A stretch of 64,000 nt of DNA from Marsupella aquatica. Lineage: Eukaryota > Plantae > Marchantiophyta. Position numbers and translations under genes: made by a program. The stretch spans positions 14,759,934 through 14,823,933 of the forward strand of contig OZ316899.1 of assembly GCA_973895155.1 (NCBI GenBank), written 5' to 3'. Positions within the stretch are counted from its first letter, which is position 1, and every line of letters starts with the position of its first letter. Shown here piece after piece: positions 6,882-39,866 of the stretch. The notes under the pieces are model-generated. The model was not told the DNA's origin. It did no database searches and saw nothing but the letters and a program-made list of their open reading frames with translations.

Positions 6882-8755
6882 TATCGTGCGCATACACATT
6901 GCTACACAACACATTGAAGCATAGTCACAATCCAACATTTCAAACATAAGAAAATGGAGTCCAAATGGAACCCATGTCCACACATGTCCAAAACCCACAA
7001 TCGCCCCCCTAGCTGGGAGTAAGGTCCCCTAACTCTAGCTAGCCATGAGTTCTACAAGGTTGATATACACCTTTTTAGGTGTGAAGATCAGGAGGTTGGG
7101 TGCAAGTGAGCCCCATTGATCACCTACCTGCAATCCATATCTTCCAAGTAAACACAAGTGATAACTAGTTGGCTTCACCGACATTGAGGACACAACCATG
7201 ATCCACTAGAAATCACCTGCAATGGTGGTGTCAAACACAACATGTGCCCTCCTCTAGAACATTGATCACAAATCAACATAGTAGCTGCTCCCTGAGTAGA
7301 TCCGCACAACATACACTTCAAGCCGGCACAAACATGTGCCAAGCTTGGATCCACTATACCATCAATGTTTGGAAGATGACATAGTGCACAATTGTGCACA
7401 TGATCCTTCCAAACCATATCATCGCTTCCCTCTAAGATTAGGACACCAGAAGGCACACACAAAATGGTTTGACCTATAGTCACATCAAGGGTTGTGGGTG
7501 TTGTCTGCTACAAATAAACATAATTGTTAGGATGAATTCTTCTAATCCTCATGCAACAACCTCCTCCACGAATAGTAACATACCACAAAGTATTGCAATG
7601 TTGGGCAATACCAAGGTTGTCAAAGGCCATGGGCATAACTCTCTCAAAAACTTGTGCCCTCTTTGAACAAACCTGGACCCAAACAGCTAGATCATCCAAA
7701 TCCACAACAATTGCAACATCACAACAAATAGCCATTGGCAAATCTGGCTCTCTACCATAGAGCAAAAAGTAAGGTGAGAAGGATGCAAGTGATGCTTGCC
7801 AACTGAAACGGTAGCCCATAGCTAACCAAGGTAGTTGGAGATCCCAATCTCCCAAATGACCAACCTAAAAAACCATACTTGCACAATCCTCTCTTCATAG
7901 TTTGTATAACTCTCTCAGCCAATCCCTCTGCCTCAAGATGATCTTGAGAAGTAGTACGATGATCAATCAAAACTTGCTCACACAAACTCTCAAATTCTCC
8001 ATGGCATTTTGTGCCCTGATCAGTCAACACCTCAGTTGGTGCTCCAAAATGACTGAGTCCATGATCCAAAAATGTGGCAGCAACTCCTTCACTAGCTTTA
8101 TCTGACAACGCCACTAGCTCAATCCACTTGGATAAGTGCTCCACCATGACCAAAACATACCAACTATGTCGTTGGGTAAGGGGCAATGGACCAGCAAAAT
8201 CTAAATTCCATTGATATCCCAAACCCATGATTAGCAACAGATGCAACTAGGGAGTGGGAGCATTGAACGATGCCCGCACTCAATCACAAACCACACACTT
8301 AGCTATCAATTGTTGGACATCAATGTGCATACCACGCCACCAATACTGTGTCTACAATAAGCTATAAGTGCGCTTCACACCAAAGTGACCCAACTCCTTG
8401 TGCGCATGTCACACCGAATGTACTCGTTGTGATGGTTTTGGTACAACCAACACCTTACCATCATGTAGTACCCTCAAAAGATGGTTTCCTTCCCATCAAA
8501 ACCTCTTGGCTTGTTATAGAACCCTATCCCGCTCCTTAGCATCACCATTGCCACCAATGGAGCGGCCACGCAGATATTCCAACACTCTCACATCGTTGTG
8601 AATATCTTGTTGCCCAAAAACTACATCACCAACATCCATATGAAGACTCGTCATCTACTCCATCCAATGAAGTAGAGTCCACAGATCCACTACATGTTGG
8701 CACCCAACAAAGGAAGACAGATGCATGTCATCTTGACACCATCTCCTTATCTATC
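6882..8755 (-). mobile_element. 3' part of a degraded PHD-bearing Ty3/gypsy element (copy C, oldest of the nest)
   Basis: Integrase fragments (WNLDFAGPLPLT, LTDQG, GLAER), PHD finger CMLC..CDQC..H..C..CPQC, PPT (tcgcccccct 7001-7010 on +) followed by a single ~119-bp B-type terminal segment 6882-7000. Confidence 0.85.
7175..8755 (-). pseudogene. Integrase + PHD finger of copy C, fragmented
   Basis: ORF pieces 7175-7483, 7508-7855 and 7752-8246 align by eye to the 17912-20301 protein; stops and frameshifts present. Confidence 0.85.
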
Positions 8756-9339
8756 TGTCGTGCGGACACACATCCATACACAACTCACATTGCAGCACAC
8801 CATGTAAACAAGAAAAAGATAATCACATGACACACAACACATGTACGCCAAAATCCATGACAAATCTTTTGCAAAACGGAACCCCGCCGCAAGGTATCAC
8901 TAAGTCGAGCCAAACTCACCCGCTAGCCATGCGGGACTCCAAGTCTATACACATAGCAAAATCCTGCTAATGTTGCTCTACATGCCAACCGTCATACACT
9001 CTCTCTCTCTCTCTCACACCATAGCCACATTTACATGAGCTCTACTAGTGCCGAGAGGCTCAACTTGGAAGAATGAGGAGCTAATCCTCCATTCCCCAAG
9101 GCACAAAGACATGGTAACCTGCGTGAAGAGGTCACCCCTAACAGGTGACCTGCTATACCAAGTCATCCTCCCAAACTCATAACACATGTGCAACCAACAA
9201 AGTTGCAACCCAAATGCAACATGGGGTGACAACTGTCATATGGACACACATCCCTACACAACTCACATCGCGGCACACCATGTAAACAAGAAGAAGATAA
9301 TCACACGACACACAATACATGTACGCCAAAATCCATAAC
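8756..9339 (-). repeat. B-A-B terminal structure of copy B (B2 8756-8861, A 8862-9231, B1 9234-9339)
   Basis: Two ~106-bp direct repeats flank a 370-bp segment; junction gaca-ac-tgtc at 9228-9237; PPT gccccct at 9341-9347. Confidence 0.85.
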
Positions 9340-11098
9340 TGCCCCCTAGCTGGTGGTTAGGTCCCGCTAACTACAACTAGCCCTAAAACTAAAAGGGAGT
9401 ATACACCGTTTGGGTGCACAGATCAAGAGGTCGGGTGCAAAGGAGCCCCATCGTTAATTGCCTGCCTGCAATCTATACTACCTAATAAGTTTTATGCTAA
9501 CCTAATAAGTTTTATGCTAAGTTTTATGCCAATCTTTATCTACGATTGGGACACAACCACCATCCTTCAGGGATTGAATCAAGAGGTGGCGTCAAGCACG
9601 CCAAGTGTCAACCTCTTGAGCAACCATCACAAATCAACATGGTTGCAGCTCCTCGGGCGGATCCACACAATATACACCATAAGCCTGTAGGTATCACTGC
9701 TAGACTAGGATCTATGCTATCATCAATGTTTGGAAGGTGACAAGGTGCACAGTTGCGCACATGATCCTTCCAAACCATATCATCACGACCTTCTAAAACC
9801 AAAATGTCTGATGACAAAACCTTCTGCACTCGCAGAATAGTACGTCCGGCAATGACATCCAAGGTGGTAGGTGTTGTCTATTGCAGATATACAGTCTCCA
9901 GAATGAAATCACTTGATGCTAGGGCGATATCCTCCTCCCCGAATAGTGGCATACCTCAGAGTATCCTGATGTTGCGCAATAGCTAAGTTCTCAAACGCCA
10001 TGGGCATCACTCTCCAAAACAAGTCTGCCCATTGAGAACAAACTTGCATCCACATGTCAGGGTCATCCAACTACAACACCTCACCGGCCTCCCATTGAAT
10101 GGCTGCTGGTAAACTGTCTCCCTACCATAGAGCAGCAAATATGGGGAAAAGGATGCAAGAGATGCTTGCCTATATACTGAAGCAATATCCCATTGCCAAC
10201 TAGGGTAGTTGGATATCCCAATATATCATTCACGTGACCCTTTTGCAAGCCATACTTCCACAATCCTCTCTTCACTATCTAGAAAACTCTCTCTACCAAT
10301 CCATCTGCCTCTGGATGATCCCTAGACGTTGTACGGTGATCAATCAATGCTTGATCACACAAGGCCTGAAAATCTCCATGAAACTCAGTCCCCTGGTTAG
10401 TCGAAACCTCAGCAAGAGCACCAAAATGGCTCAATACACGGTCCAAAAAGGCATAGGCAACTCCTTCGCTACCTTTATCTGGCAATGCAACCAACTCAAT
10501 TCATTTAGAAAAGAGCTCCACCATCACTAAGGCATAACGGTTGTGACATCTAGTTAGTGGTAAGGGTCCAGCAAAATCTAAACTCCAACAATATCCCAAG
10601 CCTCATGATCGGCAAGGGATGCAGCTGCGGGGTAGGAGCATTAAATGATGCTCTCACTCTGTCACACATAGTACACCACCACACAAATTGTTGCACCTTA
10701 GCATGCATTCCATGCCACCAATATTGGGTCTGGAGTAAGTTGTATGTCCGCTTCACTCCAAAATGTCCAAGCTCTTCATGAGCATGTTGCACCAATTGTG
10801 CATGTTGGGATAAAGGAGGTACCAACCGCACCTTGGCATCATCCCAAACTCTCAACAAGTGAGATCCTTCCCATCTGAACCTCTTAGGTCGTTGTAGGAT
10901 TTGATCTCTCTCCTTGGCAGTTACCATGCCTGGCATGCTGCCCATGCGCAAATACATCACAACATCTGCATCATCATGAATATCATGTCCAATAGACTCC
11001 TCACTAGAAATCTATGGATCCATAAAGTCTGCATTGGGCCTCTCCAATGATGCCACTACACCAAGACCATCCATACTCTGCAACAAGCACAAATAAGC

Positions 11099-11462
11099 TG
11101 TCATGACCATACGTAGCTTGCTAGACTATGTAGTGTGCTAGCGGAGTCCATACCTTAGATGGGCCGTAGTGCCTAGTTAAGAGTCTGGTTCCATGGTAGA
11201 GGGTTAGAGGGGGTGCCCTGTTGAGGGTGACTCCTCTAGTAGGACCCGCCCTCAGAGTTGGAGGGTATAGTGTGGAGAGGCTCAAAGGACGGTTAGTTCT
11301 TTGAGTTGAGCCTTTGGCGTTGGGAGAGCCTTGGTAGTGAGTGGAGCTCCTTGGCTATGGTGTCCCGTTAGCTTCAACCTAGATTTTCCATTGCGGAGTG
11401 GGTTTGGCTTGACTGTGTGTGTTCTTACGTGTTTTATGACAGTATGTCTTTCACGGATTTCA
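11099..11462 (+). repeat. Terminal repeat A1 (364 bp)
   Basis: Direct repeat of 20586-20949, about 8 substitutions by eye. Confidence 0.95.
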
Positions 11463-11473
11463 CTCAAAGAACT
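11462..11473 (+). promoter_or_regulatory. Putative self-priming primer binding site (Tf1-like)
   Basis: ACTCAAAGAACT directly after A1 is the exact reverse complement of AGTTCTTTGAGT at 11295-11306, which lies ~25 nt downstream of a TATA-like gtatag; no TGG tRNA-type PBS. Confidence 0.7.
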
Positions 11474-13117
11474 CGTAGTGATCGATTGTAACTTCGATCA
11501 GAGATCAGTAGGATCTGGTAGGTTGTTTGCTAGCATCAGCCGTGGATACATTGTGGTTCGTGGATCTGGTGCGTGTATGGGTGGGGAAGAAGCGCGTTGC
11601 TGAGAGCTTTCCAACGCACTAAAGATCGCCCGGTTTGGTCGAGCGAGTTGGAAGTAATCAAAGAATGAAGAATTTGGTTCGTGTTCAACGGTTTTTCAGA
11701 TTTGGAAAGCTTGAGAGCGGAAGCTCTGTTGGAAGTCATCCAGATCGGGTGAGAGGTTTCTGATGTTGATCCTTGTTTGATACGCAACATCAATTCAATC
11801 GTGCAGAACTATTTAGCTATGGTGTGTGGAGCGAATTGTTGTTTAGAGAGGGACCGTTGCAGATTTCTGTATTGATGAATCTATGCGGAAGCACTGTCGG
11901 ATTTCAGTGCGTTGGTAGTAGATCTGGATGACAGAGTTGCAGATCTGTGTTGTGTGATCAGTGGCGCAGAAGCGCTGTCCTAGTTGTGGCTCATAGATCA
12001 TGAGCGAAAGCGCTGTGCAACTTCGGAAATGTATAGGCCAAAATGTTGTCCAATTTTTAGCTCGAAGTACAGACCTCAGTTGTAGTTGATTTCTTGTGGA
12101 GAGATAGCTATGGTGGCCAATTGAATTCTGGTCCAGATAGATTAATTTTTTGTCAAGGATTTCACGGAGTAATCAGAGGTCAAAATTTTGCGGACTAGCT
12201 CAAGGCCTCGCTATGGTGGATAGCGAACCTGCATGCTGGGGGCGCTTTGCTCGTAGCGGAGCAAGTCGGGGCGAAAGGGGCGTGTCTCGAGCATTTCTCG
12301 GCGTTTTGAGGCTTCGAGGCAACTCGTGGTAGCTCGGGGCGAGTGGGCGTGAGAGGCGGAGAAAAGGAGCAAGGGAGCAAGCAAGCAAGCTTGCTTGGGC
12401 GTGAGATAGTTTTGCAGATTTGTGAGTAGTTATGTGAGTATTGTGTTGCATAATTGGTCACCCATCTTTGCACTATTCTGCTTGCAAGACGCTTAATTGG
12501 TAGATTCTGAATTTTGCTAGTGTATAGATTGCCTTAGAGGAATTGGTGTAATATTTGGACGTTTTCCCCCACATATGCATTGTTTTAGGTTGTGTTAGGA
12601 CCCGTTTTGGGATTCCTAGCGGATGGTGGTGGATAGCGTTTCCATGCAGGTGACATTATCAAATGTTGGGAGTGCGAGGAGCACGTCATAGACTACTAGC
12701 GGAGTAGCTACATTGCGTTAGGATTGTGTGGTGTGTTTTGTGGATTCAGGGGGCGCCACGGTTGGTGGATTGTGTTACCTTGATTTCCATTTTGTATTTC
12801 ATTTGCGATTGGAGGGTTGTCGTTGGACTTCCTGTGTTTGGATCCCCTCCATTGCTGCTTCTTGCTTGCGCGCCCATTGTTAGGGCTGACGCTGATTTCC
12901 GGAGTAGTTTTACTCTAGTGTGCTGCCTGTAGTGAGGTTGGAGTGATGACCAGTCAGACTACCTATGTTTCTCTCACGGTGAGACTGGAGTAATGACCAG
13001 TAGACCATGGGAGGTTGCTTGTGGTGATGACGGGTTAGGTTGCCCACACCCATGTAGCTATTAGGGCTAGAGTAATACGGCAACATTGACGTTACTTGGT
13101 TAATTAGTGGTGGTGAT

Positions 13118-14941
13118 TTGGTGGTGGTGCTGTTGCAGCTTGTCATCACGGAGCAGTTTGGTGGTCCTGTTGGGGACCTTGGTGCTGACACTGGTGGTTT
13201 TACACGGAGTGGATTGAGGTATCAACTACCTTTTCCACTACCGTTAGTTGATGAGGACGAGGACGAGGGTGTTCCAGACATCAAGTCTTCAGTTGTATTG
13301 TCCAGTATAGCAACCCCATTGATTTGGGATATGGACAGGATGTATGGGGGCATGAAGGGCCCACGACGTTACTCAGGGGCAGTGGGCACCATTGAGTTGG
13401 AGGACTTCATTCAGGAGTTTGATACATGGTGTGATATGCAGATGTTGCGTAATGCCACGTTATTTACACCTTTCTTGGCATGGAAGGGGTTGTTTCAACA
13501 CTTGGAGGGGCCTCCCATGGATGATTATCATGAGTTCCGGAAGGACCATGCTATTGAGATTGAGGCATGGAGACAACATTGGTCTCCAGCCTATGTGTCT
13601 ATCACTCAGGGTGGTGTTGGTACTAGTGGAGGCACTAGTGGAGGTGCTAGTGGAGGCACCAGTGGAGACACTAGTGGAGGCACTAGCGCTCCACCTTCGT
13701 TCAGCCCAGTTACAGAGTTCTTCAAGAGGTTGAAGAAGAACTACCAGGGGGTGAAGACAGAGAAGTTGAGGAGTCTTCAGGAGTTTGAGAGAAAGACTGG
13801 TGAGAGTCTTTGTGAGGCATACACTTGTATGCGGCGTTTGATTTCAGTTACTCAGGGTGTGACTGAGGCACAGGCTGTCCAGTTTTGGTATGGGATTTTG
13901 GACAGAGAGTTGCGGAGGAGGGTACGTGATGCTACTCTGATGAGTGATGATCCACCCACGTTGTCCCGTGTGTTTGCTTTGGCTAAGAAGATTGAGCTTA
14001 ACATGGTGGAGGAGAGGGTAGTGACATCTGCATTCAGTAGGAATATAGCTACTACTTCTCGAGTTCAGCCAGCCACTTTACAATCTCGTAGTAGTGGTGG
14101 TGGTGGTAGTAGTGGGAGTCGTGGAGGTTCAGCACGACCTCAGTCAGGTTCTAGAGGGACGAGTGTGCAGAGACCGTTGGCTTCATATGCTGCCCAGTAG
14201 CAAGGACCAGTGTGTTGGACATGTGGAGGTGATCATGTTCGGAGGGTTTGTCCCCAGGAGAGTGGGGGACGGAGTTTAGAGGATGGATCTCAGTCAGCCC
14301 AGGTGCAGTGTGATCATTGTGGTCGAGCAGGTCATCCTCGAGACCGTTGTTTTGACCTATACCTAGAGTTGAGGATGGGTGGTCAAGGTCGTGGTGGAGC
14401 ACCTCAGAGAGGCCGATGTGGTGGAGCTGGTAGAGGTGGTAGGGGTGGTAGAGGTCCACCAGCAGTTGGAGCACCTATAGTGGCTGCCCCTCCCCCTACA
14501 ACAGAGGCTGCTATGGCGGCTAGGATTGAGCAATTGGAGCAGAGACTTGCTACTATGGCTGGTATTCCACCTCGAGCAGGTTCGGGAGTAGGGGCTTCCA
14601 CGTCTTATGGGGGGGATGATCTCTCTTATATGGCAAGTGCGGCACAAGTTGAGGCATCAGTTGCATTGACGAGAGGTGCAACTAGAGCTTTAGAGCCACG
14701 TGGTGCCACTGTGGAGTTGGACCCACAGAAGGGTGAGGCTGGGAGGCAGGCTAGGCTTCCCCAGTCATTCTTGTTGTCAGAGGTGCTTAGGACTCCATCC
14801 ATGGTTCCTATGAGACCTGTTGAGCCGATAGTGGATACAAGGGCATCTACATCACGTGTAGTAGACACAGATGTAGCCTCTAGTGCAGTGTTTGCAGATG
14901 GCAATCTCAGTATTAGGATCCTCATTGTTTTCTGCAACTGA
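13118..14941 (+). pseudogene. gag: Gag with two zinc knuckles (in-frame TAG at 14198-14200)
   Basis: FTRSG N-terminal motif, retrotransposon gag-like helical region, CWTCGGDHVRRVC and CDHCGRAGHPRDRC, RGG-rich tail. Confidence 0.8.
13619..13688 (+). repeat. 12-bp in-frame tandem repeat (GGTS)n within gag
   Basis: ggcactagtgga-like unit repeated about 5-6 times. Confidence 0.8.
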
Positions 14942-15169
14942 ATTGATGGCCTCAGGAGTTGACATGACTCGTGTATTTCAACTAGCTGGCACGTTGTGTG
15001 AACGTGGGAGTGTTGCTGCTACGAGTGCTGAGGTGTGTGAGGGTGTTGTTGTTGAGCAACCCTTAGTGTCAGATGTTGCATTAAGTACCGATGCTACTTG
15101 GCAGGCGGCAGCGGCGAGGATGGATGCATTACCAGCCCGACCAGCCATTGATCATGAGAGACTTACACC

Positions 15170-15600
15170 TGGAGTATGTATGTTGGACAACCGAACTGGT
15201 GTCTTTCAATTGGTGAGTCCTTCAGGACAGGTGTATAGACCAGAGAGGGTGTTGTTGGACTCTGGTGCCCAACCCTTGATGTTGGGGAAGGCAACTTGTA
15301 TTGGTTTGGGTATTTGGAGGTCAGAGTTGGAGCCATGCCCATTCCAGATTCAGACATCACTTGGAGGAGCCAGTGATAGGTCTCACTTCATGACATGGGA
15401 GAGGGTGTCAGTGCAGATGAGGCCAGATCATGCGACTGATAGCTCTACATTACGAGTGATTGCTGTGGTGACATCAGCAGAGTCATATGATGTACTAGTT
15501 GGAGGTGCAGTGTTGTACCCAATGGGTTTTCAGATGGACTATTGGACTGAGACAGCAGCCTTTAGACCTGGTTGGCAGTCTGGTGATGGACGTTTGAGCC
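15170..15600 (+). pseudogene. Aspartic protease domain
   Basis: VLLDSGAQ catalytic motif and downstream YDVLVGGAVL motif in ORF 14883-16256; domain limits approximate. Confidence 0.85.
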
Positions 15601-15983
15601 AGGTGCCTGTGAGGTTTATTTGTGGGGTTAGACCAGGAGGGACTTCCCCAGAGGTATTGGCATCAGTTGTTGGTTTTAGTGGAGTGGTCACTTGGCCAGG
15701 GGATTTGTTGGAGGGTAACCTCTTAACCGTGGATTCTCTAGTCTATGAGGAGGTAGAGGAGGTCTTTAGTTTGGCGGCAGTGGTACCCTCCTTGTTGGAT
15801 GTTCCACTTTGGAGTTCAGGTGGAGTGTTGAGGCAGAAGGTTGATCATTTGATATCACAAGCTTGGAGTACACCCTTTGTACCTGTGGAGGTAGAGACTC
15901 CAAGACGAGCTCCTATTGGTGGTCCAGTGGGGTTGTCTCCTTTGGATACAACACCCATTGTTTGGGAGTATCCACCAGAGGGT

Positions 15984-16900
15984 ATTTGTGTGTTGGACCT
16001 CTTTGGTGGGATTAGCACTGGTTTGGCTGTAGTGTTGCAGGCCGGGATACCCGTGAGGAAGTATTTGTATGTGGAGAGAGATGAGACCGCGAGGAGGGTT
16101 TCATCACGACATCTTGCATTGTTGTCACAGTCCACAATTTGGGGGTATCAACGGAGTTTGCCATCAGACATTTCATTGTTGGGGGCGCAAGACCTTGAGA
16201 GGGTTGGCCCTATTGATTTGGTGATTGCTAGATGGCCATGTCAGGGACATACTTAGGCTGGTCATGGTGGAGGGTTACATGACCCTCGTTCTCATTTGTT
16301 TTGGGAGATGTTGCAGGTGTTGCGTCATCTTCAAGTGCATCAGGCACGTGCTCCAGCTTACATTCTGGAGAATGTCCCTTTGTTGGGTGATACTAGATCT
16401 CATGTGATCACGGCTGCACATGAGGTAGGTCATGGATTGGACCAGCTGTTTTGTTGGATGCAGCGAGGGTGGGCTCGCGTGCACATCGTCCACGGTTGTG
16501 GTGGACAAACTTGTTACCCAAGGAGCTTTTGAGGTGCGCCTATGATGCAATCCAACGGCCTCTATCTCTCACCGTGGATAGTATTTTGGATGGTGGACGA
16601 CATTCTCAGGTGGTGAGAGCAGTGGATAGGTCACCCATGGCAATAGTGAACCTTGTGGGGCAGCCTAGAATGGCTTTGCCTACATTTGTGAGTTTTCCCT
16701 CGTCACATGCCTATGGGGATGGTGGTCCTGGGCTTGTATGGGATTCTCATGTGCGCCAGTTGGTGGAGCCCAACGCTGATGAGAGAGAGCGTGCTATGGG
16801 GTTTCCTACCGGTGTGACATTAGTCTCTTTAGTTTCAGAGGCATCACGTTGCCAGGTGTTGGGTCAGGCTATGGACCTAAACTGTTTGACGTGGATTGTG
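15984..16900 (+). pseudogene. C5 cytosine DNA methyltransferase domain (DNMT3-like) inside pol; one TAG and one frameshift
   Basis: Motif I VLDLFGGISTG, II YVERD, IV DLVIARWPCQG, VI ILENV, VIII AHRPRLWWTNL, IX ERERAMGFP, X LGQAM, in canonical order. Confidence 0.93.
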
Positions 16901-17199
16901 AGCCTTGCGATGGCCGAGCAGCGGAGACTTAGGACCATGTCTGTGGTTACTTCACCCGTGGTGATGAGCTCGTTGCCTTCTGGGAAGGTAGAGGCATCGG
17001 CTGGGGGCAAGGAGAGTGGTAGTTTGCATCCTTGGAGTACATGGGATGTGATGCATGGGCATGTAGAGTTGGTGGCCCATGCTGGTGGAGGAGTTGTTTG
17101 CTCAAATGATGGTGTAAAGGAGCATGTGCCATCGTTTGAGGAGGTGGCATAGCAACCAATGGCGTCGTCCTCTTCCTCTAGTGTACCGGTAGAGGAGAC

Positions 17200-20100
17200 T
17201 TGGGAGCCATCACTTGGACCCAAGCTGACAGGAGGTGAACAACGATGGTTGACACAATTCCTACATGCTTATAGGAGTTGTTTTGCCTTTAGCATGAAGG
17301 AGTTGGGTGCTTTGGTTGGACCTGGTATACGGATTGATTTGGCTAGTGATACGCCAATCCCTACAGATATAGTGATATGGAGAGGGACTTGATTCGGAGT
17401 AAGATGCTGGACCTTTTGGAGGCTGGATTAGTGGAGTTGTCGCATGGGGAGTATGTGTCAGCCACTGTCATGCCTGTCAAAAAGGATGTGCATGGCAACT
17501 ACATAGAGAGGCGGATGTGTGGAGATTACCGTCCTATCAATTGGCAGACAAAGGCCGATAGGTATGCCATGCCCACACCTGAGGAGATCTTTGATGTGGT
17601 GGGACATGCAAGGATTTTCAGTACTTTGGATCTTTGGGCAGGATACCATCAGTTGCCGATTTGAGTGAGTGACAAGGCCAAGACAACATTTTGGGGAGTC
17701 AACTCATATGGCAAGGATTGTTTGTATCAGTGGCGATTCTTACCCTTTGGGTTGAAGAATGCACCTGCCAAGTTTCAGAGAGTGATGGACAGGATCCTAG
17801 CAGGATTGGATTTTGTTTGGTGTTACATTGATGATATCTTGGTGTTCAGTGATACTGTGGAGGAGCACCAACAACATTTGCAGATTGTGTTTGAGCGATT
17901 GAAAACAACATTTGCAGATTGTGTTTGAGCGATTGAAAGCTCATGGTCTACGGTTACATCCAGGAAAGTGTAGGTTCTTCCATGAGGATGTTGAGTACTT
18001 GGGTCATGTGATCTACCCAAGTGGTTTGGGGGTCCAACGGGCAAAGGTTGAGGCTATTGCACGTATCCCTCGGCCGACAGATGTGAGTAGAGTTCGGGCA
18101 TTCATGAGATTGGCAAACTACTATCGGCGATATGTGAAGGGATTTAGTGTTGTAGCAAAGCCTTTGAACAAGTTGTTGAAGTCTGATCAGGAGTGGCAGT
18201 GGGGAGATGACCAGGAGAGAGCTTTTATGGAGCTCAAGGCCAAGTTGGTGTCTGCGCCTATCTTGAGGAGACCTATCAGGGGTCGCCCATTTCAACTGCA
18301 CACTGATTGGAGTATGTTGGGGATTGGAGCGGTGTTGACACAACATGATGATGAGAACAAGGAGTTTGTGGTGGCCTATGCAAGTTGTTCAAACAATGTA
18401 GCAGAATCAAGCTATGGTTCGTACGAGGGAGAGTGCTTGGCAGCAATGTGGGTTGTGGCACACTTCAGGTGTTACTTGTTTGGCACAGATTTTACCCTTG
18501 TTACTGATCACCAACCACTCAAGTGGTTGATGGAGTCTGATAAGCTTACAGGAAAGCTTGCACGGTGGGCTCTTATCTTACAGGAGTATGACTTTCAGGT
18601 GGTACATAGACCTAGAGTTACCAACCTTGATGCTGATGGGTTGAGTAGGAACCCATGTCCTAGTCAAGAGGATGATACTGGAGCTAGATGGCATGGAGAG
18701 GTTGATGAGGAGATGGTGCCAGGATGGCATGCATCTGCCTTTTTGTGTTTGTTGGGTGTGAACTCTAGTAAGGAGGATCACCTTACACCTTCCTATAGTC
18801 AGAGGGTAGATGGCCAGCCTGCAGATCCGGAGGTTGGAGATGGTGCTACAGATCAGCGTGATATTCATGATGATGCGTTGGTGTTAGAGTTCCTACGGAC
18901 CAGTAGGGTGCCAGGCATAGTGAGTGCCAAGGAGCGAGACCGTGTTCTCCAATGTGCTAGGAGGTACCGATTGGAGGGAACACATGTTCTCCGTGTGTGG
19001 GAGGATGGTAGAGTACGAGCGGTACCCCATATAGCTCAGAGAGAGCGCATTGTGCGACATGCTCATGAGGAGTTGGGACATTTTGGAGTAAAGCGTACGT
19101 ATAACTTACTTCTTGGTCAATATTGGTGGCGTGGCATGCACACTCAGGTGAAACAGTTGGTGTCACATTGTATGGTTTGCAATCGGGTGAGGGCATCTTT
19201 CAATGCCCCTACGCCACAGTTACACCCCTTACCTATTATGGGGTTGGGTTACTGTTGGAGTTTGGACTTTGCAGGACCATTACCGTTAACTAGGCGGCAT
19301 CATCGGTATGTGTTGGTGATGGTGGAGCACTTTTCTAAGTGGATTGAGTTGGTGGCATTGCCTGACAAGGCAAGTGAGGGAACGGCGTATGCATTTCTTG
19401 ATAGAGTGCTTAGTCATTTTGGTGCACTAGCGGAGGTGTTGACCGACCAGGGTATGGAGTTTCAGGGTGAGTTTCAGGTCTTGTGTGACAAGGCGTTGAT
19501 TGATCACCGGACCACATCTCAAGATCATCCAGAGGCGGATGGTTTGGCAGAGCGTGTTGTTTAGACAATGAAGAGGGGATTGCGCAAGTATGGCCTACAG
19601 AAGGGGCATCTTGGAGATTGGGACATTCAGTTGCCATGGTTAGCCATGGGTATAGGTTCAGTCATCAATCATCCTTGGCTTCCTTCTCACCTTATTTTCT
19701 ATTGTACGGCCGAGACCCAGACTTGCCCACAGCAATTCGTCAAGATTCTAGTGAGGTGGTGAACCTTGATGACCCAGAGGTGTGGCTGAGGGTGTGTTCT
19801 CAAAGGGCACAGCTCTTTCAGAGAGTTATGCCAACAGCGTTTGAGAACCTTGCCATTGCTCAACATAGAGATACGTTGCGTTATGCAACCATCCGGGGTG
19901 GAGGTTATCGACCATCCATTCGTAGGTTCCATGTGGGGGACTATGTCTATTTGCAGCAGACTGCACCGACAACATTGGATGTGACGGCAGGACGCACTAT
20001 CTTATGTGTGAGAGAGGTGTTGGCTTATGGAGTTCTCATGTTGGAGGGTCGTGATGGTGTTGTTTGGAAGGACCATGTGCGTAATTGTGCGCCATGTCAC

Positions 20101-20301
20101 CTCCCAAACGTGGATGGTACAGTGGACCCCAACTTTATAGTGATACATGTTAGCTTGAGGTGCATGTTGTGTGGGTCTGCTAGTGAAGCAGCCCATATGT
20201 TGGTTTGTGATAGGTGTTCTAGGGGTTGGCATATGTCATGCTTAACTCCACCTGTTGATGTTGTGCCTATTGGACGGTGGGTTTGTCCTTGGTGTACTTA
20301 G
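17200..20301 (+). pseudogene. pol: RT - RNase H - DDE integrase - PHD finger
   Basis: LPFGLKNAP, YIDD; TDWS..GECLAA..TDHQPL; HHCC (HEELGH..CMVC); WSLDFAGP, LTDQG, GLAER; C4HC3 PHD at 20161-20295. Confidence 0.95.
17871..17938 (+). repeat. 34-bp perfect tandem duplication that frameshifts RT
   Basis: acaacatttgcagattgtgtttgagcgattgaaa occurs twice in a row. Confidence 0.95.
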
Positions 20302-20462
20302 GAGGTGGATGACTTGATCTTCACATGGTATGGATTGCAGATGGGCAATTAACGATGGGGCAACATAGCACCTGGCCTTTTGATCCGTGCACCCACGAAG
20401 GTGTATAGCATGTAATAGATGGATAGGGCTACCTGGGAGTTAGAGGGACCTAACCGCCAGTT

Positions 20463-20472
20463 AGGGGGGCGA
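20463..20472 (+). promoter_or_regulatory. Polypurine tract upstream of B1
   Basis: aggggggcga; equivalent motif precedes B in copies B and C. Confidence 0.75.
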
Positions 20473-21060
20473 GTTGCGGTACACTGTCTTGTATTTGTGT
20501 ATGCTCTTGTCCATGTTATGCATGTATGTGAGTATGGCATGACCAGCAATGTATGTTGTATGACGATGTGGATTCGCACGACAGCTGTCATGACCATACG
20601 TAGCGTGCTAGACTATGTAGTGTGCTAGCGGAGTCCATACCTTAGATGGGCCGTAGTGCCTAGTTAGGAGTCTGGTTCCATGGTAGAGGGTTAGAGGGGG
20701 TGCCTTGTTGAGGGTGACTCCTCTAGTAGGACCCGCCCTTAGGGTTGGAGGGTATAGTGTGGAGAGACTCAAAGGACGGTTAGTTCTTTGAGTTGAGCCT
20801 TTGGCGTTGGGAGAGCCTTGGTAGTGAGTGGAGCTCCTTGGCTATGGTGTCCCGTTAGCTTCAACCTAGATTCTCCATTGCGGAGTGGGTTTGGCTTGTC
20901 TGTGTGTGTTCTTACGTGTTTTATGACAGTATGTCTTTCACGGATTTCAGTTGCAGTACACTGTCTTGTATTTGTGTATGCTCTTGTCCATGTTATGCAT
21001 GTATGTGAGTATGGCATGACCAACGATGTATGTTGTATGACGATGTAGATTCGCACGACA
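20473..21060 (+). repeat. B1 (20473-20583) - GC - A2 (20586-20949) - B2 (20950-21060)
   Basis: B1 and B2 are 111-bp direct repeats with 4 differences; A2 matches A1; junction palindrome GACAGCTGTC at 20580-20589. Confidence 0.95.
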
Positions 21061-23900
21061 AAGCAGAAGCATGCCAACTTGGCACCATCTCCTCGTCTGC
21101 CTCATCATGCCAACATGCTCCTGTCAAATCCCTCTGGCTTGGGCAGGGATTGCAACTCAATTCATCAGCATCCTGATGTAAGTGACCAGATCTATGCAAG
21201 GCCTCAAAATCATACTCCTCAAGTATGAGTGCCCAACAAGCAAGCTTACCAGTAAGCTTATCTGACTCCATCAACCATTTGAGTGGTTGGTGATCCGTAA
21301 CAAGAGTGAAGGGATTACCAAATAAGTAACATAAAAAATGAGCAATTGCCCACATTGCAGCCAAGCATTCTCCCTCATAGGAGCCATACTTTGATTCTGC
21401 AGTGTTATTCGATTGATTGGCATATGCTACCACAAACTCCCTTCCCTCATCATCCTGCTGAGTGAGCACTGCTCCAAGTTCCAACATGCTCCAATCAGTA
21501 TGCAACCTGAATGGAGCATGTGATAGGGAGCCCCCTGATAGGTCTCCTCAAGATGGGCGTTGATGTGAGCTTCTCCTTCAACTGATGGAAAGCTCTATCC
21601 TGGTCAGCACCCCACTGCCACTCATGGTCCAATCTCATAAGTAACGTCAAAGGTTTTGCAATTGCACTGAATCCTTTCACATAACTTTGGTAAAAGTTTG
21701 CAAGCCCCAAAATGCTTGGACTCTACTCACATCTGTAGGCTGAGGGATGCCAACAATTGCCTCCACCTTTGTCTACTGCACACCCAATCCACCTGGATAA
21801 ATGGTATGCCCTAAATATGCAATCTGGTCATGGAAGAACTTACATTTTCCAGGATGCGACTTCAATCCATGCTCTCTCAGCCGCTCAAACATCTACTGCA
21901 AATGTATAGCATGCTCCTCCACAGTGTCACAATAGACAATAATGTCATCGATATAACATTTGGCAAAATCCAGGTTTGCCAAAATCCGATCCATGACCCT
22001 CTAAAACTCAGCTGGCACATTCTTCAATCCAAACGGTAAGAATAACCACTGATACAACACATCCTTCCCATGAGCATCAATCCCCCAAAATGTTGTCTTT
22101 TGCCTATCACCAATCCTGATAGGCAGCTGGTGATATCCAGCCCTGAGATCCAATGTACTGAACACTCTCGCATGCCCAATTGCATCAAATATTTCCTCCG
22201 GTGTGGGCATGGCATATCTGTCAGACTTAGTCTACCGATTAATTGGACGATAGTCTCCACACATCCTCCTGTCAGTCCAATTGCCATGCATATCCTTCTT
22301 GGTTGGCATCACAGTGGTAGAAGCGTACTCATCAAATGACTTCTCCACAAGTCCTACTACCAACAAATCCTGGCACCTTGCCTAAATCAGTGCCCTCTCC
22401 ATATCTGAACATCGATATGGTCTTCAAAAGATGGGCGCATCAACTGCCAAATCTATCCGGATGCCTGGTCCCTTTAACATGCCCAAATCCTGCATGTTGA
22501 AAGCAAAACAACTTCCATAACTCTGTAGAAACTATCATACACATTGCCTCTCACCTCCAGTGATCTTGGGGCCAATAGTTGGCTCCCAACTGTCAATGGT
22601 AAGCTTGGCAGAAGGTGCAAAGAACGCCAATCGTGGTTGCTATGCTGCAACCTTAGGAGGAGCAATACCATGTTGCTACAAAAAATAAAGCCCACTGGCC
22701 TCTCCACTGACTCCCCACGAAGTCGAGGGATGACAATTTGTGACACTGTCACGTCGTTAGCCTGGGCCTTAACCCGGGCTTCGGCTTAGACAGGCACATC
22801 CTTCGTAAATATGAGGGTTCAGGCAGGGAGGGACGCACGGAATGCACCTAACTCCCGTAAACTAGCGCTAAGTGCGTCTACTATTACTTACGGACACCTC
22901 CTAGGTATGATTTGTGTTCCACCGCCGGAACGTACCTTAGTCAATAGCGGGATCGACCCCGGCTTACGGGCTTTTAAGCCTTTATGTTGTCCGCCTTTGA
23001 TCCGGATTCAATGATATGGGCACTCAACCCGGGCTCACAACCACTTACCCGCAAGCTGCACCCCGTGCATGGCTCAGGTAGTGCGTTCGGCCAAGCGTTG
23101 GCACCCATACACAAGATTCACACATACACACACACAAGCATACAATCTCGATTTACGCAAAGGAAATAATGGGAAAGGATTTTACTACACAGGTGGACAT
23201 ACACGTACACTAAGTTGACCCGAAAGCTCTTGAATGAACAGGTCCAAGGCCGAGGGTGTACACTACAATGGAGCCCGGCTCCGCACTCACCCAACAAGCT
23301 TAGTCCTACCCCCTCCCCTTGGTACTCTTTCACTCACAGAAGTCGGGACTCCCCGCACATACCGCGGATGTCCAACTCTAAGACTAAAAAAACCCCCTGC
23401 CTCTACCGATGAGTGCACTAAATACTAAGGGCTGAGGACCGGAGTGGTCTCAAGCCCAAATATTCACTAACTAAGATCCTAACTAAGCTGGCTGTCAGGC
23501 CGGAAAATGGCTTGTCTTATTAGAAGATTCTAATCTACGCAAGCTGGACAGTATGGCAATGCCGCTTTAACTAGGGCAGGTGCTTGTCCCTATAGCCCGA
23601 TTTAGCTACTCCTAACTCTATTTTAATCCTACTCCGCCGCTAATGTCTGGCACGCTTGCCAGAGCCGCCCGAGTGGGAGCGGCTATCCCGTTGCCTCTTG
23701 ATCCTGTCGGCATCCTGCTTGAGTAGCTGGACCTGATCCAGCAGAGATTTGTTCTCTCGCTTTGCCGCGTCTGTCTCCTCCGCGGTCTCCTGGCATGCCT
23801 CCTCTAGTTGTTGGACGTTGCTCGTCAGCTTCTCCACCAATTGGGCCTGCTTTGTGGCTTCTCCTTGAAGCCGTGCCATCTCTGTCTTCAGGGTGTCTAT

Positions 23901-30700: not shown

Positions 30701-31765
30701 GAGGAATACATCCTCTTGAGCTAAGCTGGGTCTGGGGGTGCCATGGGTTCTCGAGGTTTGCGGGTGTTAGCTCGCTCGCTTGCCAAATCCTGCCGAACAG
30801 CAGCCAAGCCGCGTTCAGTATCCCAAGGGAGCTGGCGCAGGGGAGGCAAGGCCAAATAGGCATGGAGGTTGAGTTCCAAGGGTGCTCGGCCCCTAGACCA
30901 TCAGTGGAGCGAGAACCAAGAGTTGGTTGCTAGAGTCAGGATCATTCTGGTCCCGACGTGTTGTGACAAGCTTAAGGACAAGCTACACTATTTGGGCCAT
31001 GAGCATGTCTAGGGGTCAGGGCGGTCAGTAGGTGATGGATAGGTACGAGGGGGAACCCGGGCCGCGCCCAAGGAAGGAGCTGTTTTGGATGAACAATGGG
31101 CGTGGGTTCTGGTTCCGGCTTATGGCATCGGGAGGACCTATCGCTGACCTATTTACCAATGTCTATTGAGCTTGAGTTAAGATGCTAGACTTGGCAAGTT
31201 CTAGATCCTGAAGGGTTACATACTGAGGTGCTTGGTTGCTTGTGCAGACAGTGAGGACCGTTGAGAGCAGCAAAGAGACAGGACAAAGTAAGAGATAAAA
31301 CTATGGTGTAAACAGCGGTGAGTAAGGGCATCAGGTCTAAGAAACCAAGCAAGGCGGCATGAATTTGTCTAAGTAACAGGGATAGATTGGGAAAGGAAAA
31401 GTAAAAGGGCAGATTGGAAGATCCAAAAGGAGGAAGCAGGAGAAGAAGGTGTGGTGGGCAAGAGCTATTCATGTATGGAACCTGCTAACGGCGCGGGGAA
31501 GGGATGTATGCAAGTCTGCTAAACTTGGCAATCATGGAGTGGTAATTCACGGGATAGGGGCGGAGAGACATTGCTGGCACCACAAAGGAAGGACGGATTG
31601 AGAGGTGAGAAGGAACCCTTTACTTTGAGTACTCTTTGAAATCACGGCTTAAGCAATGGCGCCGATAGGCAAGGATAATGCAGGATATAGCAGGTAGGAC
31701 TCACATAGCTTGACTGCGCACCTTGGCCGGGGGCCCGGGATGCTCATGACCGTCGCCTTTTTTTT

Positions 31766-33636
31766 GTGGCCCAACAACCCTTTGACTTGTATGCTAACTC
31801 AGACAGGGCACGTAAGCGCCTGGCGGATCCAAGGGAGACACAAGAAAATAGAAACAAGCCTGGGATTGCAAGAGATAGTGAGATTGCATCGAGCCTTGCA
31901 AAGAGCAAGGTTAATGAGCGCAATTCTGAATCTGCCAAAACCCCTGAAGTAGAACCTCAGTCCATAAGACCTCAATTGGATGAGGAAAGGGCCCCGACAG
32001 AGCGCAAAACGCCGGATAATTCAGAAGGACAGGAAAGGGAAGTGGTCTTGGGTAAATGCATAAACATTTTAAAGGAGATCACGGACAATACAAAAGGTGA
32101 ATGGAGCTCTAAGCTATTCACCACAGTAGAATGGAGTCTGGAGGAAGCGGCGTGCAATGTAAAGCAATTGTACAAGTGTGCAATGCTGTGCTATTTTATA
32201 GACTGGACTCTGATGCTGCCAACATTCCGGGCATGGGTGGAAGAATGGATGGTAGAGAGGCAAGGTTGGCCAGTGCTGCAGGTGATGTTTGTCGGGAAAA
32301 GCTTCTATATGATTGTATTTGAAAATGCGGAGCATCAAGACTTGGCTTTACGGTGTGCACCGTGGTTCCTGGAGCGGAAATTAGTATTTACTTTCCCCTG
32401 GGACCCTTCATTTGATATAAGGTCTACAAAATTTACCAAGCTACCAATATGGATTGAGCTTCCTTTTTGAGCTTTGGTACTTGAAGGATGCAGGATAAAG
32501 ATTGCAAAATCACTGGGGAAGCTGCTACATTACATCCAAGGTGATGATTACAACTCCTATCCACACGACAGGGCTTGCATTGTCTAGGATACTGAATGCA
32601 AAGTACCTCAAAGTGCACGAGTCAAAATAAGGGAGCCGGATATAATTATCTGGCAACCCATTTTGTTTAAGAACATTCCTTTTCATTGCTTTAAGTGCAA
32701 TAAGAAAGGGCATTTGGCACGGAAATGCAGGGAAGGAAGGGATGTAGTTGCGGAGGCTGATCAGGAGAACAAGGGGGAGGCAGTGGATGACACCCCTGAG
32801 GAGCTGGATGTGGTAGCAGAAGGATACCCAGAGGAGGTATTGAGGAGGCAATTAGCAATGAATCTTTGGGTGCGGAAGGGAGCGGATTTGGCTGCTACCA
32901 GGGAGGGCAATATGGTAACTGCGGATCTACTAGCGGTGGAATCACTGATGCGAGAGGAAGCTGTTGCCGTTCCCGTTGCCACTAGAGCTGGGAACGGGCA
33001 ATTAAGCATTTCTAAAGGTGTTGACCGGGGAGAAGGAGACCCGCTGCTGCTGCCACCTTGCAAAGGCGGGGGGCACCGGAATTGGTTACACATATTACAC
33101 TACCACCCAGTGTGCTCGATGCTGGGGCACAAAGCTTTGCGCCTGTCAGGATTGCCTCAGCAATTGTTGATTTGATTGAATCACCCAGTGAGGGGGATGG
33201 TGCAGATCCAAAAGCTTATTCATATCACGGTGACATGGATGCTGATATGTCAGAATATGAAGATTATGTATCCGGTAAAGGGAAGGAGAGAGCCACGAAG
33301 TTGAACAAGAGGACACCTCCAATACCTCCAATAACCAAGAAAGATCGAGCTCCTCAAGAAGCTAAAAAGCAATGTTCCCTCACTTTCTCACAGTTGTCTG
33401 TGCTTGATACAGGGCTCAGCAAGCTGCACGCACATGGGACGGAGGGAGATCGACTGATGGTGGATATTGCTACCCCAATTGGCATTGATGGTGGGGGAGA
33501 AATGGAGCTTGCTTCTCCACACACAATGGACTTACTGATGGATGAGACACGAGAAATTGATATTGCAATGCCAAGAAGACGTAGAAGCGGCAGCATGGGT
33601 TTGGGTACGTCATCGGGTGGTTGGGTCCGACTGTAA
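31766..33636 (+). pseudogene. LINE ORF1 (DUF4283-like + CCHC knuckle)
   Basis: APWFLERKLVFTFPWDPSFD..LPIWIELP and CFKCNKKGHLARKC; internal stops and frameshift. Confidence 0.85.
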
Positions 33637-33699
33637 GCTTAGAGAGATTTGGGGGAGACCGGCTTTTAAATGGGTGGGTTGTTGAGGGCTGCCTCCTAG

Positions 33700-36234
33700 A
33701 ATGTGTGTGGGCTGTGCAAGCCCAATAGAAAGACTGTGGTGAAAAATTGGATAGAATCGCGGAAGGAAAGGCTGGATATTTTAGCATTGCAAGAAATTAA
33801 AGCTGATCGGTTTAGGCTAGACATTGCGTTGAGAGCAATACTGCCTACGTATCGGTGTGTCACTTTGATACCAAAGGAGGGATGGGGAGGCACTTCTCTT
33901 TTGCTACACCCTGCCATTAAAGTGGTAGCTTGGGCGCGCAGTATGGGCACTTGTAGTGTTTGAAGAGTGCAATTTTGGAATTGTGAGCGTGTATGCTCCC
34001 AATTCTCCCAAACGGAGAGCGATTCTATGGAATGAACTAAAGTTACTGCTGCCCTAGGCAAACTAGATTGTGTGTGGGGACTTTAATATGACCAAGAGGC
34101 GAGTAGATTCTACTGGGAACTCTCCCTTTACCAGGGGCCGAGAAGCTGAGTTTTGGCAATTCTTTAAGGTGAGATTTAATTTGGTAGATGCAATCCTCCT
34201 GAAGGGAGCAACAACTAGGGCATGTTTTACCAGGCGCAGGAATAGAAACGGGAGTATGGTTCAATCCCGGCTGGACAGGTTCTATTTTAGTGACAATGGA
34301 GACTGGATCGAACAGCTACTGGAGCTTGAGCATGACGGGGGTTCGGCCCTCTCGGACCATGACCCTATTGTGATAGGTGTGCGACTGGTCAAGGGTCTGA
34401 GGGGAGACAACCCTCAGGCTCGGATTAGACTCTTCAAGGCAAATCTGACACTAGTGTTGGTTGAGGGTACAGTGGAGGCTTTGCAAACGGCATGGAATGA
34501 GGGGAAAGGGGAGGGCTCTGAACCAATACTGGTGTTTGACAAGGCTAGTAGGAATTTGAGATGAGTTAACATGGTAAATCAAGCATCACCCAAGGAGCAA
34601 GAGGTAGAGATGTTGCTTCTACAAAATCAGCTTCGTATGCTTAAGGTTGCGATTATGGAAGAAAGTTCAGGAATTGAACTGCAGGAGTACATTGCAATGG
34701 AAGACTTATTACATGCAGTGGAATTAGAGGAGGCCCATCAAGTAAGACAACTGGCAAGAATCAAGTGGCTGGGGGAGGGGGAGGAGCCCTCCCAATTTTA
34801 CTTTGCAATGCTAAGGGCTAAACGGGAACACGAGGCTATGAAGAACTTAATGCTAGAGGGAGGGATGGTGATCACATATGCGGGGACGATAATGAGGGAA
34901 TTCAAAAAGGTGTGCCTTGAGCTATATGCCCCCAAGGCTCCCACTACTCGTGAGAAGGGAATTATCCTTAGGGAGCGCAGCAAACTGCTAGAGCACACTT
35001 GGGCTTCTTTATCCACTGCGGAGACTGCAATGCTCGAGGGGCTACCAAGTGCTAAGGAAATCCAAGAAGTGCTATGGTTACTCCCGAAAGACAAAGCCCC
35101 TGGCCCGGATGGACTTTTGGTGGAGGTTTATCAGGCATGTTGGGAATTCATGAAAGAGGATCTGATCGCCATGATACAAGAGTTCTGGCTGACTGGGAAG
35201 CTGGCAAGCGGGATCAAAGAGGGGACGATTAAGCTCATACCCAAGAAGCCTGATAAGAGAATGTTGAAGGATTGGAGACCTTTAACTATGCTGAACACCA
35301 TCTACAAGCTGATTGCTAAAATATTGGCACTCCGACTGATTAAGATTCTGCCACAACTTATAAGCCTGCAATAGACTGGCTTTATCCCCGAGAGAAATAT
35401 TTTGGAAAATATTTTGCTGGCCTGGTTAACTTTCGATTGGCTGAAAAACAGGAAGCATGAGGCGCTATTTCTAAAGCTAGATTTTGAGAAGGCGTTTGAT
35501 AGAGTAGACCATGATTACATATGGGAGATGATGCATCTGTTAGGCATCAGTAGCCATTTTATTAAACTAGTCTTGGCCCTGTTGACAAATGCAACGTCAA
35601 GGATCTATCTAAATGGGATGTTATCCAATGAGATAGGACTTAAAAGGGGAGTTAGACAGGGTTGTCCCCTATCACCGTTCCTGTTTGTAATTTCCATGTA
35701 GTCGCTAATGGATTTCATGGATGCAGAACTAGCAATGGGTAGACTTGCAAGGATACAGGTTTCTGAGGCACTTAGAATTTGTTACCATTTTTTTGCGGAT
35801 GATTTGGGGGTGTTTATGCCTGCCACGGAGAGGAACTTTCAGCAGGTTACTGCTATAATAGAGTGCTATGAAACTTCCACGGGGGCCCAACTCAGCTTGA
35901 GGAAATCGATAATAATCCCAATAGAGTTGGGGGATATATCGAGATGGCTCAGGGACACGGGATGTGTGATCAGTGGGAGGGGGGAGCTGCAGAAATATCT
36001 TGGGGCTCCATTAGGTGTGGATTGACGACGGAGCAGCTGCACAGCTTTGTCCTGGACAAAATTGGACAAAGACTATCCTCATGGGCAAAACAAGCTTCTG
36101 ACATTCACAGGACGATCACTGCTGGTGAGACACATTTTACAGGCCATACCGATTTATCACTCCATGTTTCTTAAAGCATCCAATGGGTTGGCAAGAAAAA
36201 TGACGGCACTGTGCAGAGATTTCTTATGGGGTTA
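33700..36234 (+). pseudogene. LINE ORF2, APE endonuclease + RT part
   Basis: LALQEIK, CGDFN, SRLDRFY, SDHDPI; KAPGPDG, WRPLTMLN, KLDFEKAFDRV, GVRQGCPLSP, FADD. Confidence 0.93.
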
Positions 36235-37345
36235 TGTCACTTGCCTCTCCAACGGTTAATACGTGCAAACCGCACTTTTCTTCGCTTAAACCGTTGGTAT
36301 CGTATTACGGGGTCGTGGAGGGACGCTATTTGGATTCTTTTCACACCAGGATGAGTATTTTGGTTTCCGCTCCCGGAAATGTAGGTTTTGATCAAGTCTA
36401 CCGACTACCCTCACCCCACAGCTTTTGATCAAGTCCTGCCGACTACCCCACTACACCTTCACTCGGAGTCACCCAAAGAGTGCTGTCACCACCCCTACTC
36501 ACAAGGCCGACTCAAACCAAGCAAGTTTCTTCAAATCATAGAACGGGAGAACACAATTCGGAAAGCGAAAAAGGGAGAAGGAACACACAACAAAAGCCCA
36601 TCAAGTCAAATGTACAGATCCATATCTCTTGGGAAAAACGATACACATTGCATGAGTAACCCGGCCTCCTGCCGTCTACTCAACTCCTGCCTCTCCGGAC
36701 AATGAGTATGGCTCCCCCTCACTACTCTGAACACGCTTTCAAACTCCTCAGGCTCCACTCTATCCCTCCTTGCTAACTTCACACTGAGTCCCCCTAACTA
36801 CTTCGGGGCTATCCCCCTAAATACTGAAAAATCACACCAAAGCACCCCTCACAGGGTCACAACGGTGGCGGCTACCCTAGCGGCGCCGCTAAAACCTTGC
36901 ACTAAGAGAAATCCTTAAACTGAAGAGGAGCATGCGGCACACACATGCTGCTAAAACCCTAAACCCAAAACAAGGGGGCCGACGGTGCCTTCGACGGCGC
37001 CCCAACAGTACACGTGAACCCTGAAAGTGAGAGGCACCCCAAAATGGCCGAAACTAGGTGCCCTTCCAAGTGCACACCTGAGCTCACCCCTGGATAGCTC
37101 TTCTTTTCCTGCTTCCGAATCACTAAGTCGCTCCCTCAACGGACTTCAGACGCCTGAGTTATGGCCGTTTCCGTACCGCAAAAACATAAGTTCTCCAGGC
37201 CATAACTTGCTCATCCTGGCTCCGTTTGAGGAGCGCCGCCTCTTGTTGGAATCAGCTCCGCGAGCTCATCCCAACAAGCCCATGAGTGACCCCCCACTAA
37301 AATGTTGGAAATCTGGAGGCCGTACACCCACGTCCGTACGCCTAT

Positions 37346-39202: not shown

Positions 39203-39639
39203 CCATGCATCCCGAAATCAATTTCTCAATCACCAATCCCGTCACCCGTGGCAATGTCAATTCCCTGGCCCGAAACAGCCCCCGTAGCCCGATCACTTAA
39301 ATTCTCTCAATTTCCCGTCACTACTCCGTGCGGCCGCCACTAATGCCTGGAAGAATGACGCCAGCAAGCCCCACTAATCCACCATGAAAGAGAGAGCTTC
39401 AAAAATAATTAGAATCTGGAGAGAGCTTCCGGCAAGAGAGAGAAGAACCCCGTTTTTGCTTTCGGCAATGAGAGGGTCGTGCAAAAGGAAGAGGGAAAGA
39501 AAAAGGAAGGAAAAAAAAAAAAAAATAGAACCGAAAAAACTCCTGGCGCCTTCGCCATGCGCCCCGGCCCATTTCTCGGGCCTTACCCTTGCGTCCTCCT
39601 GCGCGCGGCCCTATGCAGGGCGCGCGGCCATTCCTCCCG

Positions 39640-39866
39640 GCTCGCGGGAGGCCCTTCAACTCCCCCCCGCTCGCGTGATCCTCCCAGCTCGCGGGAGGCC
39701 CTTTAACTCCCCCCCGCTCGCGTGATCCTCCCAGCTCGCGGGAGGCCCTTTAACTCCCCCCCGCTCGCGTGATCCTCCCAGCTCGCGGGAGGCCCTTTAA
39801 CTCCCCCCCGCTCGCGTGATCCTCCCAGCTCGCGGGAGGCCCTTTAACTCCCCCCCCCCCGCTCGC
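39640..39866. repeat. 47-bp GC-rich tandem array in 3' LTR (4 units plus partial)
   Basis: ctcccccccgctcgcgtgatcctcccagctcgcgggaggccctttaa repeated. Confidence 0.95.

Follow-up and report, generated by a model that had tools for sequence, protein, structure and literature searches.

PAT, Ngaro and TOC1 are split-direct-repeat retrotransposons, tyrosine-recombinase elements whose parts follow the order A-internal-B-A-B. The same order is found in an element of the liverwort Marsupella aquatica, at positions 11099–21060 of the stretch analysed here (the window: 64,000 nucleotides of contig OZ316899.1, assembly GCA_973895155.1, forward-strand positions 14,759,934 to 14,823,933). Unlike PAT, Ngaro and TOC1, this element has a DDE integrase, a polypurine tract (PPT), a primer-binding site (PBS) and a random 4-bp target-site duplication (TSD), and no recombinase was found in the open reading frames (ORFs) scanned. 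The reading that we consider probable is that the ends of its cDNA are first joined head to tail and that integrase then cuts, in a polar manner, at the palindrome on the PBS side.

The layout appears to have been noted in print once, for a streptophyte Gypsy element. The legend to Fig. 4c of de Mendoza et al. (2018; PMC5890265) describes KnitGypsy-Dnmt3 of Klebsormidium nitens as having DIRS-type repeats together with Gypsy domains, and Fig. 1e of that paper draws DIRS repeats as A-coding-B-A-B. Both features of KnitGypsy-Dnmt3, a DNA methyltransferase (DNMT) within a Gypsy Pol and A-coding-B-A-B repeats, are present in the Marsupella element. The K. nitens protein KFL_009030040 (P0053 in our homolog set) is collinear with the element through protease (PR), DNMT, reverse transcriptase (RT), RNase H (RH) and integrase (IN), with 48% identity over RT–IN, and presumably represents the named element. 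The parts of PMC5890265 covered here give no termini, TSD, palindrome, priming mode, single-B forms or mechanism. In the literature searched, which did not extend to the main supplement of PMC5890265, the REM1 paper, Craig's thesis or Repbase, the name KnitGypsy was found in that paper only and no description of the mechanism was found. The original prediction, made from the sequence alone, knew of no description of such a transposition route for plant gypsy elements; the layout is in print, whereas the mechanism does appear to be undescribed. Troyka was considered and rejected as a split-repeat match, as the part of PMC12440569 consulted gives it CG...CG ends, a 3-bp TSD and a distribution confined to animals.

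The 5' end of the Marsupella insertion is formed by A1 (11099–11462, + strand; putatively the 3' part of U3 plus R-U5), which starts with TGTCA, the left integrase end. At the 3' end a PPT (about 20463–20472, +; in the same place in relatives) lies directly before B1 (20473–20583, +; putatively the 5' part of U3), which ends in CGCACGACA and is followed by a GC spacer (20584–20585), A2 (20586–20949, +) and B2 (20950–21060, +). B2 abuts the end of A2 with no PBS or PPT between them, and its terminal GACA is the right integrase end. The order is A-internal-PPT-B-GC-A-B. The two A copies (364 bp each) are identical at 355 of 363 aligned bases (97.8%) and the two B copies (111 bp each) are 96.4% identical. 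The insertion is thus not bounded by two equal long terminal repeats (LTRs): A alone stands at its 5' end and B-A-B at its 3' end. The joint between B1 and A2 is the palindrome GACA-GC-TGTC (20580–20589, without strand), the candidate site of integrase cutting; the window contains GACAGCTGTC a single time, at 20580. The insertion termini, TGTC...GACA, sit at this internal palindrome and are flanked by copies of the TSD AAGC at 11095–11098 and 21061–21064 (both +). Every one of these features had been placed by the original prediction at the same base.

Public contigs from two of four runs contain the empty site, in which 11094 is joined to 21061 with four letters that fit either side (three contigs in run X3 and one in X4). 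This joint was not found in the contigs of runs X1 and X2, the latter having two joints nearby. The element was inserted into an older, minus-strand relative, whose pol stays in one frame across the site. Because of the empty-site contigs and the in-frame target, the boundaries and the 4-bp TSD are secure.

Relatives were sampled as 80 of 466 confirmed metagenome loci plus four from genome contigs, all of them short-read assemblies. Within the main subfamily a full PPT-side B is present in 41 loci, representing 32 distinct sites, of which seven read B-A-B, three B-A and then something else, and 22 B and then other sequence. Twenty clean single-B ends remain once L039/L047 (an internal deletion) and L073 (B-GC-TG, then other sequence) are set aside from the last group; the L039/L047 deletion runs from the PHD region to midway through A2, so that half of A remains, together with B2. 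The 5' copies of A number 15, at 13 distinct sites; all start with TGTCATGAC and have unrelated flanks, none follows a B, and TGTCA opens the element at 13 of 13 distinct ends. Eight distinct sites are complete: five have an exact 4-bp TSD, two match at three of four positions and one (L066) has no TSD. Seven of the eight are A-internal-B, and the form met most often in this sample is the single-B element with an intact TSD. B-A-B also occurs in other subfamilies, in L082 and, weakly, in L075/L076 and L077. L081 and L055 read B-A-PBS and are collapsed repeat contigs (with a 127-bp end overlap in L081), and were not counted as elements. The contigs of L081–L084 are filed in prokaryotic genome assemblies and carry a eukaryotic retrotransposon, likely through contamination.

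The window is a nest of related elements, as would suit an ordinary LTR element that had been nested, tandemly duplicated or misassembled in this one copy. To that explanation we give practically no weight, because the layout recurs, with unrelated A and B sequences, in a neighbouring element, in the relatives and in curated Chlamydomonas entries, and because no paired BA...BA element with a TSD was found among the relatives. The layout is real, family-wide and old.

It is the palindrome that is conserved, GACA-NN-TGTC being kept across subfamilies whose natural cDNA ends (the start of B and the end of A) differ. It is conserved in L081, L082, L054, L083 and L084 and in Chlamydomonas library entries; distant loci and those entries have the joint GACA-GC-TGTC again, 50–110 bp past the PPT. 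In L083 and L084 (42–44% protein identity) a G-rich PPT precedes the palindrome by about 58 bp, against chance expectations of 0.002 and 0.005. In the portion of the Chlamydomonas repeat library searched as text, the palindromic 10-mer occurs 11 times, nine of them equally near a PPT-like run of G as judged by eye. Chlamydomonas reinhardtii Gypsy-14a/14b (Craig et al., PMC9940879), in the entries seen, read A...PPT-B-GC-A-B by eye like the Marsupella element, start with TGTCGTG, end with GCGCGACA and have the same AQHRD integrase tail and PHD finger; Gypsy-14b lacks the start of B2. In Gypsy-6 and Gypsy-7a/b/c_cRei, again by eye, the internal entries end PPT-B-GC and the LTR entries end in the same B, which is about 50 bp long in Gypsy-6 and 8 bp in Gypsy-7. 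Gypsy-7a differs from the Marsupella element in having a TGG-type PBS and the joint GACA-GC-TGTG, and no AQHRD was seen by eye in its integrase tail. In the legend to Fig. 6 of PMC9940879, the left LTR of Gypsy-7a is said to be without the 8 bp that end the right one, which is explained by an 8-bp B in a split layout. The same paper reports Gypsy-7a_cRei transposing in laboratory Chlamydomonas (86 insertions in CC-4532), and the parts of it covered here do not describe the layout of Gypsy-6, -7 and -14 as distinct. Judged by its layout, Gypsy-7a_cRei may be a living minimal or convergent form.

The self-primer of Tf1 is 11 nt long. In the Marsupella element, the 11-mer directly after A1 (11463–11473, +) is the exact reverse complement of 11295–11305 (+) inside A1, and A1 has no other complement of 11 or more bases anywhere in the 9-kb internal region. 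The original prediction placed a PBS-like site directly after A1; the complementarity of this site to A1 points to self-priming, and it matches none of the tRNAs tested (host tRNAs were not among them, and the window has no tRNA gene). A TATA-like TATAG (11266–11270, +) lies 29 bases before the inferred transcript start, and a similar motif is present in 11 of 13 relatives. The element likely primes itself as Tf1 does, with an RNA that starts inside A1 at 11295–11305 and pairs with the 11-nt site. With priming of this type the RNA would start inside A and B-GC-A would be the copied LTR, in keeping with the original prediction of a replicative unit running from PPT to PBS. Among 13 relatives the self-priming match is exact in three, has one mismatch in five, two in two and three or more in three; L081 and L055 retain the pairing, over 13 and 16 nt respectively, in other letters. 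The predicted fold of the 5' region closes on the helix of PBS and self-primer. A short inverted repeat also straddles the putative start (11279–11305; likewise in L003, L059, L081 and L055), so that the self-primer is immediately preceded by a sequence almost identical to the PBS; the repeat is kept with different letters in other subfamilies. Tf1 and Sushi/Tcn1 resemble the element in having a PBS complementary to the inferred 5' end of the RNA, a likeness of sequence, but have chromodomains and paired LTRs where the element has a PHD finger, a DNMT and split repeats. In the parts consulted, Neumann et al. (2019; PMC6317226) predict self-priming among plant chromoviruses only for Tcn1, and the term 'PHD' is absent from the main text of that paper.

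Established LTR reverse transcription would turn such an RNA into a cDNA of the form BA-internal-BA. Since this is what ordinary copying yields, the usual two jumps cannot produce B2 from the RNA, and it has to be remade from B in each cycle. The end of A would be joined to the start of B, through end joining or an additional, third jump of RT. Integrase would probably be bound to the ends by then, and the polarity would be explained in this way. Both strands would next be cut at CA^GC in a staggered manner, creating two CA-3' ends with 2-nt 5' overhangs for insertion with a 4-bp stagger. Copies of the form A-internal-B would be dead ends, produced by B1×B2 deletion after insertion or by direct insertion of one-LTR circles or doubly cut linear cDNA. 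A related reaction is described for foamy virus and HIV-1, whose integrases cut the palindromic joint of a two-LTR circle on both strands and free integrable ends (PMC1180852 and PMC4372172, in the parts seen). There the cut falls where the two LTRs of the circle meet and is a side route by which ordinary LTR ends are regained, whereas in the Marsupella element the site lies inside the LTR and is used by every copy seen.

The original prediction was of a two-LTR circle opened inside one LTR. The position of the ends at an internal palindrome agrees with this, but a freely cut circle is disfavoured by the absence of A-B-A-internal-B from the sample and by the excess of single-B ends over B-A-B. 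In its extended form the proposal is that free closed circles are opened at any palindrome, so that one-LTR circles give A-internal-B and two-LTR circles give both A-internal-B-A-B and A-B-A-internal-B, the latter collapsing by A×A recombination. One rule would then yield both common forms; in addition, single-B copies are scattered among B-A-B copies in a tree and two joints look end-joined. However, A-B-A was found at none of the 13 distinct 5' ends and in none of the seven complete single-B elements, yet B-A-B survives at seven of 32 sites, and the fold-back copy described below is not a singly cut circle. Contig depth in X4, roughly twice that of the internal region over A and about 0.8 times at the A|B joint, is a further point against it, if a crude one that cannot separate B-A-B from A-B-A. 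We therefore regard free circles as unlikely. It is because the two identical palindromes of a two-LTR circle should also give A-B-A-internal-B, a form absent from the sample, that the cut looks polar.

The A|B joints bear on how B2 arises. At ten distinct sites, seven joints are precise, two keep PPT bases and one was not judged. The joint of L018 contains the last PPT bases and a 17-nt filler partly copied from nearby, and that of L057 the last PPT bases; both look as end-joined cDNA would. Copying as in PAT and Ngaro could also be considered, with the RNA running through B2, the B1–A2 joint serving as template for the ends, the A|B joint inherited and integrase replacing the recombinase only. 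The repeat order is that of split-repeat tyrosine-recombinase elements (as drawn in the figures of PMC5890265) and most A|B joints are precise, in agreement with such a scheme. Nevertheless, the conserved PPT directly before B1 and the PBS directly after A1 imply ordinary two-primer copying, and the PPT bases inside two joints mean that B2 came from the PPT-primed end, which makes inheritance of the joint quite improbable. One further site, seen in two assemblies (L013/L016), reads B-GC-A-PBS and then an inverted copy of A as far as TGACA, with arms 94% alike. It is best read as a plus strand that was folded back and cut at the palindrome read backwards, the strand having carried a PBS copy, paired with the putative start site and ended at the reversed palindrome.

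Several observations weigh against joining followed by a polar cut. Of 32 sites, 20 have single-B ends, and these show no clear sign of greater age than B-A(-B) ends (median distance 0.108 versus 0.089, p = 0.33); L066 is complete without a TSD. Short-read assembly could collapse B-A-B to B, and single-B copies may reflect later deletion, direct insertion or such collapse; the single-B end in the window itself (6883–7010) speaks for at least some being real. The self-priming match has three or more mismatches in three of 13 aged copies, no self-priming pair was established in L083 and L084, and the 5' fold as a whole is unremarkable (z of -1.8, with eight of 200 shuffles equally stable). The polarity of the cut is an assumption, and the cDNA, the circle, the RNA end and the enzyme activity in the scheme are predictions from sequence.

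The element is a decayed Ty3/gypsy retrotransposon of the order gag-PR-DNMT-RT-RH-IN-PHD, with stops and frame changes. The gag region (13076–14938, +) is broken by a stop; it shows CCHC-like knuckles by eye and a weak match to the N-terminus of homolog P0017, and no Pfam match. An aspartic protease followed by a C5 cytosine methyltransferase, broken over several frames (14877–17150, +), is collinear by tblastn with P0017, P0053 and P0023, all of which carry PF00145, although the broken pieces have no direct Pfam match. RT, RNase H, the integrase zinc finger and the DDE core (17350–19561, +, with frame changes in RT) match Pfam RVT_1, RT_RNaseH, Integrase_H2C2 and rve, the closest PDB match being Ty3 Gag-Pol (E = 4e-49). 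The integrase C-terminus, recognized in the alignment by its AQHRD motif, and a PHD finger (PF00628, E = 1e-9) occupy 19504–20301 (+). The PR-RT-RH-IN order, DDE integrase, PBS, PPT, TG...CA ends and short TSD are those of Ty3/gypsy elements. The usual integrase spacing from the second D to E is 35 residues; in the element (window 19450–19560) and five homologs it is 34.

Insertion of a circle at the palindrome by a tyrosine recombinase, its own or borrowed, would suit the repeat order, and the GC of the B1/A2 joint is also found at the end of the left TSD. However, the 4-bp TSDs are random and the integrase core is kept. The shared GC was rejected as coincidence, none of 13 distinct relative 5' flanks ending in GC. 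In agreement with the original prediction of a DDE integrase without a recognizable recombinase, no tyrosine recombinase was found in the seven main ORFs or in 30 of the 64 six-frame ORFs of at least 60 residues that were scanned (a decayed gene in the remaining short ORFs is possible), nor in the Pfam lists of the best 120 of 757 homologs. A recombinase therefore seems very improbable.

The homolog search returned 757 proteins, and the 120 listed include proteins of Marchantia, Klebsormidium, Closterium, Chlamydomonas, Pleodorina and Haematococcus; among viral contigs, neither the single candidate of one search nor any of the 18 of another was confirmed. In a quick tree (121 of 122 rows, picked by likeness to the query and without reference lineages) the element is sister to Marchantia P0023 (support 98), and the pair falls inside a group of 114 rows (support 98) with K. 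nitens, Closterium and chlorophyte proteins, whose inner forks are open. We lean, with modest confidence, towards an old branch of Ty3/gypsy in the green lineage, ranging from Chlamydomonas to land plants, in which the integrase attachment sites have shifted from the cDNA ends to one palindrome in U3 and end joining is obligatory and polar.

Two relatives neighbour the element. The older one that was its target (element 2, about 69% identical in pol) has a 3' end of the form PPT-B'-GT-A'-B' at 8756–9350 (-), with B' and A' sequences different from the focal B and A. A third (element 3) ends in a PPT and a single B followed by flank (6883–7010, -). Within element 2's pol, the focal insertion falls on the WHASA motif (11095–11098); in element 3, the 3' end of element 2 (8755) also falls in this motif region, about 13 codons earlier. 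The observation was made post hoc and has no counterpart in the relatives' flanks. Family-specific targeting was rejected, with one short match among 28 relative flanks. An ordinary Gypsy element (36235–51164, -), which falls outside in the quick tree, has paired 4.1-kb LTRs that are 98.9% alike, the 5-bp TSD GGTTA, an unbroken gag-pol frame of 2140 residues and a 623-residue ORF inside each LTR (37349–39217 and 48099–49967). It is flanked by ORFs that we take to be LINE-like from their motifs (31709–35371 and 51236–52504, +), probably one interrupted element. A host exon of 734 residues (2–2203, -) encodes a coiled coil that presumably resembles filament-like plant proteins.

LTR circles and end-joined cDNA are generally regarded as by-products. 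If the proposed mechanism is correct, every insertion of these elements would need end-joined cDNA, and the family would offer a natural case of integrase acting on an internal palindrome, with a circle-type joint as its normal substrate. Split repeats could then arise without a tyrosine recombinase. Programs that search for paired LTRs see only A...A and are likely to overlook both B and the TSD, a possible reason for the poor cataloguing of the lineage. Since an element with the split layout is reported to be active in laboratory Chlamydomonas, the mechanism is directly testable.

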